In this document: piece after piece, positions 1 to 8,455 of the stretch | Layout: the number at the start of each line of letters is the position of its first letter | Numbering within the stretch: position 1 is the stretch's first letter | The notes under the pieces: model-generated | The model's input: the letters and a program-made list of their open reading frames with translations, nothing else | Database searches by the model: none | Told to the model about the DNA's origin: nothing | IMG/VR virus record: IMGVR_UViG_2724679236_000015 | Source: a virus | Taxonomy: Duplodnaviria; Heunggongvirae; Uroviricota; Caudoviricetes | Length of the DNA: 9,876 nucleotides | Strand: one strand, 5' to 3' | Made by a program: the position numbers and the translations under genes

Positions 1-258
1 AAAATTGCAATATGTGGTGGACCCATACATCTCCTTGCCTTTCGGCACGTAAGAGGCTAACCTAGATTTGCCGTTCATAGATTGAGCCTCAGATTAATGT
101 TAAGCGTCTTGCAGGACGCGTAATGTTAACTGGGGCTTTTCTCTATCTGCCTTTTGGTATTCATGCCTGAGACAGATAGCCTCAAGCACCCGCAGCAATT
201 CTACTTAACTCCCGTAACCTCGCCAATATGAAATCAATCAGAAAGGTGATCCATAAAA

Positions 259-648
259 TCACTGCTTCTCTTCTTTACCGTAGTGGAGTTGACCAATTTT
301 GATAAGAGGGCGTCCCTGAGATTTGCGGTGTAGATTGGTATCGCGCAGAGAATGCACACAGCCACAATATTCCTGCTGATAGAATTGTTCGCGTTTGCTG
401 ATTTCAATCATGCGGGACAAGCCCCCCCCCTGCTTGCGCCAGTTATAATCCCAGTACACAATTCCCGGATAATGTGCGACAGCTCGCCGTCCGCAGTCGT
501 TAACCTGCTGCATATTTTTCCAGCGTGAAATGCCCAGTGAACTGCTGATCACACTGAAACCATTTTCAGCGGCGTACAGCGCTGTCCGCTCAAAACGCAT
601 GTCAAAACACATAGTACAACGCCTCCCACGTTCGGTCTCCCATTCCAT
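259..648 (-). CDS. QueH/DUF208-family (epoxyqueuosine reductase-like) protein, C-terminal portion; gene appears frame-split, with the N-terminal part at 702-845
   Basis: Translation contains [14 protein letters not shown]...[14 protein letters not shown]...YCGC, which I recognise as the C-terminal signature of DUF208/QueH. The frame stays open upstream to a stop at 751-753 with no alternative start codon, so the ATG at 648 is either an internal restart or the gene is disrupted. Confidence 0.55.
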
Positions 649-701
649 TCCTTTGGCTCGCTCAAACCAGTTGTCAGTGTCGTAATCAGCATCGATAAAC
701 G

Positions 702-845
702 CTACACCGTGTTGTTCTCGATTCCTGAGGCCTGAAGAGTCTCCATCACTTCACCGGAACATGGTGCACAACAAGAGTGTAATAGTAGTTTGTTTGCCCC
801 GTTTGGGAGCTCCAACTTAGGACGTTTGAAATCAGCAACTGTCAT
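702..845 (-). pseudogene. N-terminal fragment of the QueH/DUF208-like gene, in a different frame from the C-terminal ORF
   Basis: Minus-strand ORF ATG(845) to TAG(704-702) translates to [58 protein letters not shown] is the N-terminal Fe-S cysteine motif of QueH. Its frame differs from the 259-648 ORF; the two overlap at about 702-750. Confidence 0.5.
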
Positions 846-1116
846 AAATGTTTACGTCGGGGTAATGAAACTTGCAAGGAGTGTAGCATCAGAGTGTACT
901 GCCCCCAAAAGTTGGCAGTTAAACAAGAGGCTAGATATTTTGAGCAAAATTTCAAGATCAACTAATGCTCCTTTTTTGAACAAGCGTCCTGATTATACCA
1001 ATCAGATCGCATTACAATGCTATCTTTACTGATAAGTCAGTTGATTGTTTCGTTAAAATGCTTCTTAATACCGTAAACTTATTACTCCAGCACAGATAAC
1101 ATATAATGAAATAGCC

Positions 1117-1389
1117 ATGAAAATAGACATTAAAAATAAAAATGGGAATACACAACACCTAGACGTGTCATCGTTGATTATTACACTTAATAATGGAGAA
1201 ACTATTGAAATCACAGATGAAAACAAAAGTCGCCCAATTGATATACCTGAGGGGGTTACAGTGTGGGGAGGCCAAGCTCCCGATCAAGGAGCAAGCATAG
1301 ATCAACTAAAAAAGACAACTCGTGGCATAGGAATATATCCACTAGCCTCCAATATGGTGCACATATTCCCTTATTCTTTAAAAAAGTAA
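1117..1389 (+). CDS. Hypothetical 90-aa protein (moron-like, AT-rich, opposite strand to the surrounding operon)
   Basis: ORF sits in a visibly AT-rich island (about 1040-1520) with rare codons (ATA, CTA). A TATAAT hexamer at 1102-1107 lies 9 nt upstream of the ATG. No clear Shine-Dalgarno. No family recognised. Confidence 0.4.
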   Translation: MKIDIKNKNGNTQHLDVSSLIITLNNGETIEITDENKSRPIDIPEGVTVWGGQAPDQGASIDQLKKTTRGIGIYPLASNMVHIFPYSLKK

Positions 1390-1526
1390 AATCTTATGTA
1401 GCGTTTTAGTAGATACCAAATAAAGAGTGGAACTAAAATTTGATTTTAGCGCAGTGCCAGATGAGGCGATGGCTCTGCGCCGTAGATACACCAACTTAAA
1501 CTTGAGCTATTACATTTTGATTTTGC

Positions 1527-1949
1527 TTACCGAACAAATTTCTGGATATTTCCTCGATAAAACATCAGTACACGCTTCATCACTTCGCTCTTACGGCACT
1601 CGCTACAGATTATGTTTAGACGACTGTCGTAGCGACGTATTTCTCCGTCAGGAAATGACCAGATAAGGTCCGGATCAACCACAGCAGGTTTCTTCACCTT
1701 TGCCCTCGAGAGTTTTTTGCGGGCGTTTTGCCAGTCCTTACGCGCCTGTTCAGACGGGAATAACCCGTAGCCGGAGTTGTATACATCGCCACTGGCAACC
1801 AGCTCTCTGGCGAGAACACTCATCAGATATCTTGTCGCACCTGTTTTAGCTTCCAGTTGCCGTAACGTCTCTCGACCGCTCTGGCGCACGAGTTCCACCA
1901 CCTGCCCTTTAATTTTTTCTCGCTCTTCTTGTGTAAATACTTTTGCCAC
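1527..1949 (-). CDS. Hypothetical 140-aa protein with an HTH-like segment; occupies the position of a helicase loader downstream of the O-like gene
   Basis: GTG start at 1949 preceded by a perfect AGGAGG (rc of 1954-1959). The segment TLRQLEAKTGATRYLMSVLARELVASG looks helix-turn-helix-like. A 37-nt gap separates it from the upstream O-like gene. Confidence 0.65.
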   Translation of the reverse strand: MAKVFTQEEREKIKGQVVELVRQSGRETLRQLEAKTGATRYLMSVLARELVASGDVYNSGYGLFPSEQARKDWQNARKKLSRAKVKKPAVVDPDLIWSFPDGEIRRYDSRLNIICSECRKSEVMKRVLMFYRGNIQKFVR

Positions 1950-3754: not shown

Positions 3755-4162
3755 ATGGATACAAAAAATTTAACCATTGGCGAACGCATTAGATATCGCC
3801 GAAAAAACCTCAAATACACCCAAAGGTCTCTTGCTAAAGCCCTGAAAATTTCTCATGTATCGGTTTCACAATGGGAACGGGATGATAGCGAACCTACAGG
3901 AAAGAATCTTTTTGCCCTCAGCAAAGTACTGCAGTGCTCGCCAACATGGATTCTATTTGGCGATGAAGACAAGCAGCCATCACCACCTATTGAGGAGCCA
4001 GTTGCTCTATCCCCCAAAGAACATGAGCTCCTTGAGCTTTTTAATGCATTGCCTGAATCAGAACAGGATGCTCAGCTCACCGAGATGCGCGCCCGAGTAA
4101 AAAATTTCAACAAACTCTTTGAAGAGTTATTAAAAGCCCGTCAACGAACAAACAAAAGATAA
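3755..4162 (+). CDS. dicA: XRE-family HTH repressor DicA (CI-like immunity repressor)
   Basis: 135-aa protein MDTKNLTIGERIRYRRKNLKYTQRSLAKALKISHVSVSQWERDDSEPTGKNLFALSKVL... closely matches my recollection of E. coli DicA (same length, classic HTH). Confidence 0.85.
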   Translation: MDTKNLTIGERIRYRRKNLKYTQRSLAKALKISHVSVSQWERDDSEPTGKNLFALSKVLQCSPTWILFGDEDKQPSPPIEEPVALSPKEHELLELFNALPESEQDAQLTEMRARVKNFNKLFEELLKARQRTNKR

Positions 4163-4186
4163 CGCAATCAATGCGTTATCTTTTTG
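4155..4186 (+). terminator. Rho-independent terminator downstream of dicA
   Basis: AGATAACGCA-atcaa-TGCGTTATCT: a perfect 10-bp stem (4157-4166 / 4172-4181) followed by a T-run (4181-4185), overlapping the dicA stop codon. Confidence 0.6.
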
Positions 4187-4197
4187 GTCGCCCAAAA

Positions 4198-4251
4198 TGT
4201 TAGTCATGGCAAACAAAAACACTTGACCAAATTGTTAGCTATGGCTAATCT
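4198..4251 (+). promoter_or_regulatory. Putative dicB-operon promoter overlapped by DicA-type operators
   Basis: TTGACC (4223-4228), 17-bp spacer, TAATCT (4246-4251). The palindrome TTAGC-tatg-GCTAA (4235-4248) overlaps the spacer and -10. An imperfect related site lies at 4200-4213. Confidence 0.45.
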
Positions 4252-4328
4252 TGCTTGCATCAAGACACCGCACGGTGTTCTCAGCAAACAGTTCCGCTAC
4301 CCCGGCGTTAAGGGGAAATAAGGTCAAC

Positions 4329-4481
4329 ATGGATACTATCAATCTTGGCAACAACGAATCTCTGGTGTGCGGCGTGTTCCCAAACCAAGACGGTACGTTC
4401 ACCGCAATGACGTATACCAAAAGCAAAACGCTTAAAACCGAATCTGGCGCGCGTCGCTGGTTAGCCAGAAACACTGACTGA
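4329..4481 (+). CDS. ydfA: YdfA-like small protein (DUF1391-type, 50 aa)
   Basis: MDTINLGNNESLVCGVFPNQDGTFTAMTYTKSKTLKTESGARRWLARNTD; AAGG Shine-Dalgarno 5 nt upstream of the ATG at 4329. The ORF-track start at 4251 lacks an RBS. Resembles my recollection of Qin YdfA. Confidence 0.6.
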   Translation: MDTINLGNNESLVCGVFPNQDGTFTAMTYTKSKTLKTESGARRWLARNTD

Positions 4482-4492
4482 TGAGGCTGACG

Positions 4493-4858
4493 ATGGAATT
4501 TAAAGATTTACCGTCTGATGTACAGAAAACAGCAGCTCATACATTGCATTCTGTGCTGCGAGAAATCGGGAAAGATATTGCAAGCGAGCCAGCAAAAGAT
4601 CTGGCCCGGAAAATCAAGACCGCTTTCGTTGAGCTTTATAATGTTGGCACTGACTCTGAAACTGTCGAGACCAAGACCGTAAGTTCACCAATATTCTCAC
4701 TTGAGCCAGGCGTATTATCAGGTGAAATATGCACCGAGATTTCCAGCGAACTGCTTCCGGTAATACGAGAAGCAATTTGCCGTCGCGGTTTGGATGGAAG
4801 TTACGATCATGACGTCCTGCAAGTTCTCAGGACAATGGTGACTTCACTGGGGATTTGA
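4493..4858 (+). CDS. Hypothetical acidic 121-aa protein of the dicB operon
   Basis: GAGG Shine-Dalgarno (4483-4486) 6 nt upstream of the ATG at 4493. An alternative ATG at 4481 overlaps the ydfA stop (TGATG). No family recognised. Confidence 0.55.
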   Translation: MEFKDLPSDVQKTAAHTLHSVLREIGKDIASEPAKDLARKIKTAFVELYNVGTDSETVETKTVSSPIFSLEPGVLSGEICTEISSELLPVIREAICRRGLDGSYDHDVLQVLRTMVTSLGI

Positions 4859-5027
4859 TCCCTGCGTCCTCTAACCTTTTGATATAGCGGTCCTCCAAGA
4901 AGCGGTAAATTTTGTCGAAATCATCTTTCCCCTCTGGTTTATTCAGAGGATTACAGGACCCGTAAGTAACGGCATACATTTCAACCGTTTTATCAAAAAT
5001 ATAAGAGACAAATTCTTCTTTAGTCAT
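4827..5027 (-). CDS. Hypothetical 66-aa protein encoded antisense to the dicB operon
   Basis: Minus-strand ATG at 5027 preceded by AAGGAAA with 7-nt spacing. It is the only open frame across about 170 bp where the plus strand has none. Translation: MTKEEFVSYIFDKTVEMYAVTYGSCNPLNKPEGKDDFDKIYRFLEDRYIKRLEDAGIKSPVKSPLS. Its 3' end overlaps the 121-aa ORF convergently. Confidence 0.45.
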   Translation of the reverse strand: MTKEEFVSYIFDKTVEMYAVTYGSCNPLNKPEGKDDFDKIYRFLEDRYIKRLEDAGIKSPVKSPLS

Positions 5028-5302
5028 ATAGATTTCCTTCTTGGTTATTCGGGATAAGAAGGATACCACCTCGCCTGACGTGGTTAAAAGCAGGCACACA
5101 ACACGAAAGCGCACGGCGAAGTTCGTCTCACTGTACGGTGTCGTTAAATTTAATTCGACCGTGCGCTTCCGGTTGTGGCAACCCGCGAAATGGCGCGGCG
5201 GTAAGTATGGCGGGGTTATTCCTTCCCCGTTGAGGACACCGGGTTGTCAGGTTGACCATACGCTTAAGTGACAACCCCGCTGCAACGCCCTCTGTTATCA
5301 AT

Positions 5303-5358
5303 TTTCTGGTGACGTTTGGCGGCATCTGTTTGCCCATGAACTGATGTCCGCCCTTTTT
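5303..5358 (+). ncRNA. dicF: DicF-like small RNA (cell-division inhibitor sRNA of the dicB operon)
   Basis: TTTCTGGTGACGTTTGGCGG matches the DicF 5' region as I recall it, followed by a GGCGGCATC...GATGtCCGCC hairpin and T5 (5354-5358). Located upstream of dicB as in Qin. Confidence 0.7.
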
Positions 5359-5527
5359 AAAGTGAATTTTGTGATGCGGTGAATGCGGCTAAGCGCACGC
5401 GGAACAGTTAAAGCTAAAAACAGTGTTATGGGTGGATTCTCTGTATCCGGCGTTAATTGTTAACTGGTTAACGTCACCTGGAGGCACCAGGCACCGCATC
5501 ACAAAATTCATTGTTGAGGACGCGATA

Positions 5528-5716
5528 ATGGAAACGTTATTACCAAACGTTAATACGTCTGAAGGTTGTTTTGAAATTGGTGTCACTATCAGCAATCAGA
5601 TATTTACTGAAGATGCCATTAATAAAAGAAAACACGAACAGGAACTGCTAAATAAAATATGCATTGTTTCGATGCTGGCCCGTTTACGTCTGATGCAAAC
5701 AGGATGCAGGCAATGA
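5528..5716 (+). CDS. dicB: Cell-division inhibitor DicB
   Basis: 62-aa protein METLLPNVNTSEGCFEIGVTISNQIFTEDAINKRKHEQELLNKICIVSMLARLRLMQTGCRQ; GAGGA Shine-Dalgarno 8 nt upstream. The ORF-track start at 5423 is an unsupported upstream extension. Confidence 0.85.
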   Translation: METLLPNVNTSEGCFEIGVTISNQIFTEDAINKRKHEQELLNKICIVSMLARLRLMQTGCRQ

Positions 5717-5915
5717 ATACGGCATTTGTACTCGTTCTGACTGTTTTTTTGTTTCTGGTGAACCGATTGATCTTGTTATTGACATACATGACTCAATGGA
5801 AGAATGCATGACTGCCGCGGCAGAGCAAAAAATTCCCGGTAACTGTTATCCGGTCGATAAAGTTATTCATATGGACAATAACGAAATCCCGGCAGGACTT
5901 AAAACAGCACCGTAA
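5713..5915 (+). pseudogene. ydfD-like small membrane (lysis-type) gene, split across two frames at a T7 tract
   Basis: ATG at 5713 overlaps the dicB stop (ATGA). Frame 0 gives a hydrophobic MNTAFVLVLTVFLFLVNRLILLLTYMTQWKNA and stops at 5809-5811. The -1 frame entered at the T-run 5744-5750 reads VSGEPIDLVIDIHDSMEECMTAAAEQKIPGNCYPVDKVIHMDNNEIPAGLKTAP to the TAA at 5913-5915. Confidence 0.45.
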
Positions 5916-5995
5916 TTAATATCCGATTTCATTTTTATATGCCAGCAATGGCAGGGATTTGTTCACACTTAAATCTGTAATGAGGTTAAAACAAA

Positions 5996-8455
5996 ATGAG
6001 TAAAGTCTTTATTTGCGCCGCCATTCCGGACGAACAGGCAACAGCAGAAGGCGCTAAACCTGTGGCCACTGCCATTGAAGCAGGCGACGAACGCCGGGCA
6101 AGAGCCAAATTTAGCTGGTTATTTCTGGAACAATACCCGGAAGCTCAGGACTGTGCTTATAAATTTCTTGTCTGCGAGGATAAACCCGGCATGGCCCGCC
6201 CTGCTCTCGATTCCTGGGATTCCGAATATATGCAGGAAAACCGCTGGAATGAGGAGTCGGCTTCCTTTGTTCCGGTCGACCCTGAACCGGACGCAGAAAT
6301 TGTTAACTTTAATCAGTTATCTGACGACAAGCGGGCTGCTGTCCTTGTCAGGTTCGGTACACATGAAAACATCACCGTGGATATGGTCATCAATGCAAGC
6401 GGGCTTCTCGGCGATGACGAGATGACGACTTTTGATGGACACCTCGCTGAAGCAATTATCCGGACCAGAGAAATTAACGCCATGTATCCAGAGCGTCAGA
6501 TTGAGTACATCAACGATGCCAGACGTGATTTAAAACCAACAGCCAAATGGCCCGACGTTCAGGCGTATTTTCTCGAACGTAAAAAACGCATGGAAAAGGA
6601 GCGCAAAGAAGGTGGCGCATATAATTCCGTCGTCGATCTTGCCCGCGCCAGAGTCAACCGGCAAGGCACTGAAAACTCTGCAGGAAAAACTGGCTCCGTA
6701 ACTGCTGTCATTCGTCGCGAATACAGGCAGACATGGAAAACACTGGATGACGAACTGGCCTACGCTCTCTGGCCTGGTGATGTGGATGCCGGAAACATTG
6801 ACGGCAGCATCCATCGCTGGGCAAAAAATGAAGTTATCGACAACGACCGCGAAGACTGGAAGCGTATCTCGGCATCAATGCGCAAACAGCCTGATGCCCT
6901 TCGCTACGACCGCCAGACTATTTTTGGCCTTGTCCGTGAACGTCCGATCGACATTCACAAAGACCCTGTGGCACTGAACAAATACATTACTGAATACCTG
7001 ACGACAAAAGGCGTGTTTGAAGATGAAGAAACGGATCAGAGTCCTGCTGATGTTCTCCGGTCGTCAGCAACACAAACTGATGCAGTGGAAACAGAAGTAT
7101 CTGGCACCCAAAAAAATGAAAGCGCACTGGAAGCTGAACCATCTGTAGAGCGTGAAGGACCGTTCTACTTCCTCTTTACCGATAAGGACGGCGAAAAATA
7201 CGGTCGCGCAAACAAACTGTCTGGTCTGAATAAGGCGCTGGCTGCCGGGGCTACTGAAATCACCAAAGAAGAATACGTCGCCCGAAAAAATGGCACATAC
7301 ACAGGCTTACCGCAAAATACCAATGCCGCACAAAACTCTGAACAACCAGAGCCGGTAAAAGTTAACACGGTCGAAACAAATAAAAAAATGGAGACAGAAA
7401 ATCTGCCTGATGCCGACAAAGTGCTTACTGCATCACGTGGTGAATTTGTTGAAGGAATTAGCGACCCGAATGATCCGAAGTGGGTTGAGGGGATCCAGAC
7501 TCGCGATTCTGTGTACCAGAATCAGCAAGAAATGGAACAGAACGACCAGAAAGCGGAACAAAACAGCCCGGATGCGCAACAAAACGGGCCAGAAGTGCAA
7601 CAGTCAGAGCCAACAGCACAACAGGAGACTGAAAAAAGCTGCAATACTTGCGGCCGGACTGGCGGTGGAAAATGTCCGGACTGCGGGCCTGTTATGGGTA
7701 ACACAACATATCAGGAAACATTCGATGAAGAAAATCTGGCTGAAAAAGATTCGGAGAAAATGGAAAGCACTGCGCATTCTCGTAAGGAGAGCGCTGGTGA
7801 CGCTCAGCATGGCAATAGCAGTGATGAAACTGGCGAGACGGCAAATCCCCTAATTCCGGTGAACAGTCATCATAAATACATATCCACCAGCAACAGAATG
7901 TGGACTCATATGATGATCGACCTGGAAACCATGGGAAAAAATCCTGATGCTGCAGTTATCTCAATAGGTGCAATATTTTTCGATCCGCAAACCGGAGATA
8001 TTGGGCCAGAATTCAGTAAGACCATCGATCTGGATACTGCTGGCGGTGTCATTGACAGGGACACCATTAAGTGGTGGCTGAAGCAATCGCGCGAAGCGCA
8101 GTCTGCCATTCTGGCTGATGAAATCCCGTTAGATGATGCACTGTTGCAATTACGGGAATTTATCGACGAAAACTCTGGTGAGTTTTTTGTTCAGGTCTGG
8201 GGCAACGGAACCAGTTTCGACAACGTAATTTTACGCCGTTCATACGAACGACAGGGAATCCCCTGCCCGTGGCACTACTGCAATGATCGCGATGTTCGCA
8301 CGATCGTTGAACTGGGAGGAGCCATGGACTTCGATGCCAGAACGGCTATTCCATTCGAAGGCGAGCGCCACAATGCACTTGATGACGCCCGTTACCAGGC
8401 AAAATACGTTTCAGCTATCTGGCAAAAACTGCTCCCAAGTCAGGCTGATTTTTAA
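5996..8455 (+). CDS. Prophage exonuclease: RecE-N-terminal/YdfE-like region fused to a C-terminal DEDDh (DnaQ-like) 3'-5' exonuclease domain
   Basis: 819-aa ORF with GAGG Shine-Dalgarno 10 nt upstream. The C-terminal roughly 190 aa carry DEDDh motifs: IDLETMG (Exo I), VWGNGTSFDNVIL (Exo II), HNALDDARY (Exo III). The segment ASRGEFVEGISDPNDPKWVEGIQTRDSVYQNQ resembles the RecE N-terminal region as I recall it. A C-x2-C-x9-C-x2-C motif (CNTCGRTGGGKCPDC) sits in an acidic, Q-rich linker. Confidence 0.85.
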   Translation: MSKVFICAAIPDEQATAEGAKPVATAIEAGDERRARAKFSWLFLEQYPEAQDCAYKFLVCEDKPGMARPALDSWDSEYMQENRWNEESASFVPVDPEPDAEIVNFNQLSDDKRAAVLVRFGTHENITVDMVINASGLLGDDEMTTFDGHLAEAIIRTREINAMYPERQIEYINDARRDLKPTAKWPDVQAYFLERKKRMEKERKEGGAYNSVVDLARARVNRQGTENSAGKTGSVTAVIRREYRQTWKTLDDELAYALWPGDVDAGNIDGSIHRWAKNEVIDNDREDWKRISASMRKQPDALRYDRQTIFGLVRERPIDIHKDPVALNKYITEYLTTKGVFEDEETDQSPADVLRSSATQTDAVETEVSGTQKNESALEAEPSVEREGPFYFLFTDKDGEKYGRANKLSGLNKALAAGATEITKEEYVARKNGTYTGLPQNTNAAQNSEQPEPVKVNTVETNKKMETENLPDADKVLTASRGEFVEGISDPNDPKWVEGIQTRDSVYQNQQEMEQNDQKAEQNSPDAQQNGPEVQQSEPTAQQETEKSCNTCGRTGGGKCPDCGPVMGNTTYQETFDEENLAEKDSEKMESTAHSRKESAGDAQHGNSSDETGETANPLIPVNSHHKYISTSNRMWTHMMIDLETMGKNPDAAVISIGAIFFDPQTGDIGPEFSKTIDLDTAGGVIDRDTIKWWLKQSREAQSAILADEIPLDDALLQLREFIDENSGEFFVQVWGNGTSFDNVILRRSYERQGIPCPWHYCNDRDVRTIVELGGAMDFDARTAIPFEGERHNALDDARYQAKYVSAIWQKLLPSQADF

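Follow-up and report, generated by a model that had tools for sequence, protein, structure and literature searches.

A deleted and frameshifted remnant of the queuosine gene queH in the early region of a lambdoid prophage

Prophage genes of the window

The stretch of DNA analysed here (the window, 9,876 nucleotides) is formed by the first 9876 bases of draft contig BBVS01000019.1 (GCA_001514845.1), which starts inside a hok/sok locus. It covers the early region of a lambdoid prophage, with int, xis, exo, dicB, cI, cro, ydaT, an O-like gene and a DUF977 gene (Table 1). Gene content, Pfam matches and synteny all agree with an earlier note, made from the sequence alone, that had placed the locus in a lambdoid prophage. 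On the minus strand at 259-845, ORF translation reveals both ends of a QueH/DUF208 gene, lying in two different frames; the gene shares its strand with the rightward early genes.

Table 1. Features of the window
Feature	Position	Strand	Evidence
sok antisense RNA of a hok/sok-type toxin-antitoxin locus	24..191	-	Rfam RF01794, 107.4 bits (gathering score 59)
queH pseudogene, 3' fragment	259..717	-	ORF, Pfam QueH, database gene call with PF02677
G9 homopolymer (C9 on the plus strand)	422..430	-	Alignment, shuffles, three assemblies
queH pseudogene, 5' fragment	702..845	-	ORF and translation, Pfam QueH, alignment to intact alleles
Deletion junction	717..718	-	Alignment to intact alleles; same junction in two independent read-set assemblies
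90-aa hypothetical ORF, divergent from queH	1117..1389	+	ORF
DUF977	1527-1949		Gene calls/Pfam
O-like gene	1990-3009		Gene calls/Pfam
ydaT	2936-3457		Gene calls/Pfam
cro	3441-3671		Gene calls/Pfam
cI-like repressor	3755-4162		Gene calls/Pfam
dicB	5528-5716		Gene calls/Pfam
819-aa YdfE/Rv2179c-like exonuclease	5996-8455	+	Pfam
Excisionase	8520-8768		Gene calls/Pfam
Integrase	8746-9876		Gene calls/Pfam

The match to the sok RNA is full-length and lies just downstream of queH, as a neighbour and not as part of the gene. In E. coli prophages hokD comes after queH or after the slot that queH would occupy, and the contig break at base 1 of the window is probably due to the recurrence of hokD-type loci in several prophages per genome. 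At the other end the integrase gene abuts ompW, so that the prophage adjoins this gene. From ompW to yciA, the chromosomal flank reaches no more than 88.8% identity to any of 5424 E. coli records, and Escherichia albertii is the probable host.

The slot between DUF977 and hokD has variable contents. A syntenic prophage at ompW in E. coli FUJ80154 matches 76% of the window, at 90.5% identity, and carries two other hypothetical genes in this slot instead of queH. Other prophages have queH in the DUF977-hokD slot, beside hokD, nin genes or others. Related prophages thus differ in whether they have the gene, and since slot contents differ between prophages, queH behaves as exchangeable cargo. In the window the slot holds the 90-aa ORF and the queH remnant; window positions 1000-1550 were compared with 4064-5085 of locus L127 and 4644-6013 of locus L002. 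In E. coli 755, an IS150 element is inserted directly upstream of an intact queH.

The 90-aa ORF that diverges from queH has no Pfam or NCBIfam match. The same arrangement of this ORF and queH recurs in locus L001; the ORF was rejected as a partner of queH, being found upstream of it in only 3 of 108 loci. A promoter and terminator scan of window positions 1-1600 gave nothing that exceeded shuffle expectation. The 819-aa protein of the early left region combines YdfE_N and YdfE_C domains with a C-terminal Rv2179c-like 3'-5' exoribonuclease domain (221.7 bits); its large and little-studied gene is labelled simply 'exonuclease' in E. coli relatives.

Two pieces of one queH gene

QueH (DUF208, PF02677) was defined by Zallot et al. 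(2017) as a cobalamin-independent epoxyqueuosine reductase, which performs the last step of tRNA queuosine synthesis. In the window, the 5' fragment follows the native gene over positions 845-718, through codons 1-42 and two bases into codon 43, and includes the cysteine motif HSCCAPCS. Past base 718 it continues with the out-of-frame residues ENNTV and ends at a TAG stop at 704-702, giving an ORF of 47 codons. The 3' fragment runs from native codon 71 to the native stop, ending in KEEKQ. Its frame is open from 750 to 259; the first ATG, at 648, gives a product of 129 aa for which no database record was found, while the database gene call starts further in (259-612, 117 aa, PF02677). The cysteine motifs RCTMC(F) and YCGCVHS are kept in this ORF.

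Both pieces exceed the gathering cut-off of the Pfam QueH profile PF02677 (23.5 bits): the 5' ORF scores 27.1 bits over profile positions 1-24 and the 3' frame 131.4 bits over positions 52-174. Both thus belong to one family, as the earlier note had suggested from two motif-bearing parts in different frames, and the HMM alignment that might have assigned them to different families did not do so. NCBIfam holds no model matching QueH. Profile positions 25-51 are matched by neither piece, so that instead of one continuous polypeptide over positions 1-175 there are two frames, interrupted by the stop at 704-702. All three cysteine motifs of the family (CCAPx, RCxxC and YCGC) are present, yet they are divided between the two ORFs. 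The FFYNPNI(H/Q)P block that follows the first strand is missing altogether and falls entirely within a deleted segment of 82 bp.

An 82-bp deletion

Alignment with intact PGAP-annotated queH genes of E. coli prophages (L001 6155-6823, 222 aa; L002 6089-6754, 221 aa) places the loss of 82 consecutive bases between window positions 718 and 717. The missing segment, CTACACCATC...CGATTTGCT, begins with CTACACC and ends with CGATTTGCT. In the window GGAATCGA is joined directly to GAACAACACGG, and the junction can be recognised by GGAATCGAGAACAACACGG. About 27 codons, flanked by (D) and (E) and including the FFYNPNIHP motif, are removed, and because 82 = 27x3+1 the frame is shifted (net +1). The TAG at 704-702 arises only in the shifted frame, and only through a private C-to-G change at 702.

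This gap replaces the single-nucleotide indel near 700-750 that the earlier note had proposed, a model ruled out by the alignment to intact alleles. With 27 codons gone, no one-base correction or slippage restores the enzyme. A deletion mediated by microhomology or repeats was also considered and rejected: the junction cannot be slid by even one base and therefore has no microhomology.

The junction is rare. Against E. coli, every top match to the junction region falls into two pieces spanning 233 nt, not 151. The junction was found as a single piece in none of 5426 complete E. coli genomes, and in none of 185,579 species-representative genomes (GTDB). The exact 117-aa product occurs on contigs of GCA_001514845.1 and of the Logan assemblies DRR017165 and SRR11059127; it is on record for 3-4 contigs, against at least 1000 contigs for each of two intact protein forms. 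In DRR017165 and SRR11059127 the DNA is identical to the window across both the junction and a downstream run of nine G, a comparison made at the level of assemblies that, like that of the window, were all built from short reads. Junction and run are reproduced in two read-set assemblies and are therefore not an assembly error. Resequencing might have yielded one uninterrupted frame, and the assemblies of independent read sets restore none.

Residues 20-196 of the intact prophage QueH align with residues 4-178 of Thermotoga maritima QueH (7LC5) with E=3e-22, and the deleted FFYNPNI.P stretch is among the best-conserved blocks of this alignment. With a conserved core segment lost and the cysteine motifs split over two ORFs, we infer that the remnant protein would be inactive.

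A homopolymer in the 3' fragment

The C9 run at 422-430, reported in the earlier note, is indeed the sole homopolymer of at least 8 bases in the window. Dinucleotide-preserving shuffles lead to an expectation of 0.04 such G9/C9 runs per window (5 of 200 shuffles had one). At this site intact alleles read GGGCGG or GGGAGG, from which the window differs by one substitution and three extra G. The codons CAG GGC/GGA GGC TCG (QGGS) of intact alleles thus correspond to CAG GGG GGG GGC TTG (QGGGL) in the window. The extra glycine codon adds three bases and stays in frame with the 3' ORF. A private C-to-T change at 419, S169L, adjoins the run. The A/C-to-G substitution, the GGG insertion and the C-to-T change all lie within about 10 nt, and this cluster at 422-419 may represent one complex event and not three separate ones.

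Among 126 loci compared, G9 is limited to four copies of this one allele; the other 122 have GGGCGGCTCG (115), GGGAGGCTCG (6) or GGGCGGTTCG (1) at the site. No G-run variants were seen among relatives, which comprised 120 IMG/VR loci, 2 E. coli loci and 5 species representatives. The run is therefore not a conserved feature of queH. A phase-variable locus has a tract whose length varies and sets the frame of an otherwise intact gene, and the window has G9 at one length in all three assemblies. Its role as a slippage hotspot, also put forward in the earlier note, is not borne out: the run is in frame, and slippage in it cannot mend a deletion that lies about 290 nt further upstream in the gene. 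The G9 tract is best read as a side effect of decay, not as a switch for phase variation.

Signs of decay and a mosaic allele

The remnant was compared with 30 distinct alleles from among the 117 intact copies, and seven of its substitutions are private to it. Six are nonsynonymous (A36T, P76A, P98T, M156I, S169L and Y191H) and the seventh lies inside the G run. Two of them affect conserved motifs, namely P98T in EWEPERG and Y191H in CGCVYS. Among the 30 intact alleles, 59 polymorphic codons vary only synonymously and 16 change the amino acid. Against this 16:59 background the private ratio of 6 out of 7 is a significant excess (Fisher p ~0.001), for a small count of private substitutions (n=7). 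The intact copies are thus under purifying selection and the window copy is under none.

The allele is also a mosaic: in its 5' part it resembles alleles of the 669-nt type, in its 3' part those of 666 nt. Mosaicism is usual for lambdoid phages. Some of the changes counted as private could therefore have come in with a donor allele outside the sample, rather than having been acquired once the gene was inactive.

Intact queH is common in prophages

A search with the gene alone detected queH in 995 of 5426 complete E. coli genomes (~18%), with at least 80% of the gene covered in 985. This count rests on the gene-only query; a query with window positions 150-1000 gave an inflated 3610 of 5426 via flanking sequence. 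The E. coli queH records listed are all named 'epoxyqueuosine reductase QueH' (PGAP). More than 120 IMG/VR viral contigs match a short conserved queH pattern, and all 120 loci retrieved hold the gene. Intact copies were found in E. albertii (type strain), Shigella flexneri and Enterobacter soli among species representatives, and one of the two widespread intact protein forms is named 'MULTISPECIES ... [Enterobacteriaceae]'. Among isolated phages, only Escherichia phage HannyBb has a close copy, annotated as hypothetical. Thus, the presence of QueH in a lambdoid prophage, which the earlier note regarded as unusual, is widespread in E. coli genomes, in viral contigs and in several Enterobacteriaceae species.

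The survey of related prophages for intact copies, which the earlier note had proposed, yielded 117 intact genes among 122 comparison loci. Three more are cut by locus ends and two have other, independent lesions, so that 117 of the 119 copies not cut off by a sequence end are intact. In locus L061 (12603-13257) a 1-nt gap reduces the queH ORF to 59 aa, and in locus L046 (6396-7011) a 40-nt gap reduces it to 158 aa. As these lesions differ, sporadic loss of queH recurs independently.

E. coli carriers of intact prophage queH include ST131, O157:H7 and APEC O18 strains. Two further occurrences fall under unexpected names. A 22.9-kb contig of a metagenome-assembled genome labelled Veillonella parvula (L132, JAGZPX010000007.1) carries an intact queH and prophage flanks 88-93% identical to the window, and looks like a mis-binned Enterobacteriaceae prophage contig. 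Two records of 328-378 kb named 'Acinetobacter phage MD-2021a' (CAKLQH020000001.1 and CAKLQF020000001.1) encode a QueH, annotated 'putative prophage protein', that is 78% identical to the Escherichia prophage protein; these records may represent bacterial DNA, or DNA that includes a prophage, and not the genomes of free phages.

Origin of the remnant

The best explanation, with a probability of about 0.9, is that the minus strand at 259-845 holds a decaying pseudogene of queH, a common prophage cargo gene that suffered an 82-bp deletion and then came under relaxed selection. The deletion took out 27 codons and shifted the frame, leaving the 47-codon 5' ORF and a 129-codon 3' ORF. Relaxed selection would then have let six private amino-acid changes build up, along with the cluster of mutations that turned GGG(A/C)GG into G9. 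The deletion presumably came first and the later mutations after it. The host presumably tolerates the loss since Escherichia has a chromosomal queG. Of the possibilities that the earlier note left side by side, it is the decaying remnant that agrees with the deletion, the frameshift and the six private changes.

Three other explanations were weighed. The real gene might be intact and the deletion, the G9 run or both might be draft-assembly errors near a contig end. The locus does sit near a contig start, at a distance of 259-845 nt, where the draft assembly is interrupted within a repeated hok/sok locus, and some sequencing platforms are error-prone at homopolymers. But two read sets that were assembled independently give an identical junction and an identical run, a loss of 82 bp with no repeats on either side is atypical of assembler or homopolymer errors, and the six private amino-acid changes fit a long-dead gene. 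An artefact is thus extremely improbable. The chance that the gene is phase-variable or recoded, with QueH toggled by slippage at G9 or by ribosomal frameshifting near 700-750, is next to negligible. A G9 run is a classic slippage substrate and rarely arises by chance (0.04 expected), but a frame change at either site cannot return the 27 codons that hold FFYNPNIHP, the run length is the same in the three assemblies, and 122 other queH loci have no run at this position.

A truncated protein could in principle be made from the 3' ORF, which is open to the native stop. Such a C-terminal product of 117-129 aa might have been neofunctionalised, being expressed in a new role such as binding of tRNA or epoxyqueuosine (oQ), or interference with the queuosine (Q) metabolism of the host. 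This would be in keeping with the retention of RCxxC and YCGC in the open frame and with an allele common to several read sets. Against it, the 3' ORF has neither the N-terminal CCAPC cysteines nor native start signals, conserved motifs have taken nonconservative private changes, an open remnant of 129 codons is expected by chance soon after a frameshift, and the allele is rare next to either intact form. A new function thus seems very unlikely for this ORF.

Significance

The queH remnant is an ordinary pseudogene of a known and annotated family, which pipelines tag as QueH or partial QueH. It offers two diagnostic lessons: a signal of a gene 'split across two frames' was due to a multi-codon deletion and not to a correctable one-base indel, and a striking run of one base inside coding sequence reflected decay rather than a switch.

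The intact prophage genes have a wider potential interest. By homology, their product is predicted to convert epoxyqueuosine in tRNA into queuosine with no need for cobalamin, and E. coli is not known to synthesise B12 de novo. If the prophage gene is active, lysogeny would change the queuosine status of host tRNAs when cobalamin is scarce. It is a tentative and somewhat doubtful proposal that intact prophage queH may be an undescribed lysogenic-conversion gene, one that would provide cobalamin-free completion of queuosine to hosts that rely on B12-requiring QueG and lack de novo B12 synthesis, and would thereby alter the decoding of Asn, Asp, His and Tyr codons in lysogens. If this proposal were true, the decayed allele would show that the trait is dispensable in some lineages. 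A literature search combining queH, DUF208 or epoxyqueuosine reductase with phage or prophage returned incidental mentions only and no paper on the prophage gene, and no paper was found that states or tests the idea of B12-independent Q maturation in lysogens via prophage queH.

Comparison with known systems

The window pieces resemble QueH, whose structure from T. maritima is 7LC5, in matching the family profile and in carrying CCAPC, RCxxC and YCGC. In that structure the cysteines of CCAPx, RCxxC and YCGC reportedly bind a [4Fe-4S] cluster and an extra iron. Intact sister alleles, with 95% DNA identity to the window copy, align with the structure over residues 20-196. The window copy differs from QueH in the loss of profile positions 25-51, the split into two frames, the changes P98T and Y191H, the extra glycine and further private changes. 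As judged from these alignments, it descends from the QueH family but is predicted not to be a functional member of it.

QueG (YjeS) of E. coli catalyses the same oQ to Q reaction. It is counted as a cobamide-dependent enzyme, with QueH as the cobamide-independent alternative; it also differs from QueH in belonging to an unrelated protein family and in being chromosomal.

Homopolymer contingency loci share with the window a run, here G9, inside a coding sequence. The window run differs from theirs in that it is not conserved in the family, has one length in all three assemblies and follows a deletion that slippage cannot repair.

The closest relatives are the intact prophage queH genes (WP_001595668.1, WP_000150294.1 and that of HannyBb), which are 92-97% identical to the window copy in DNA. 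They occupy the same slot, between the replication/DUF977 genes and the hok/sok-nin region, and are read in the direction of the early rightward operon. In E. coli, Shigella, E. albertii and Enterobacter these genes encode uninterrupted proteins of 221-222 aa, whereas the window copy is deleted and frameshifted.
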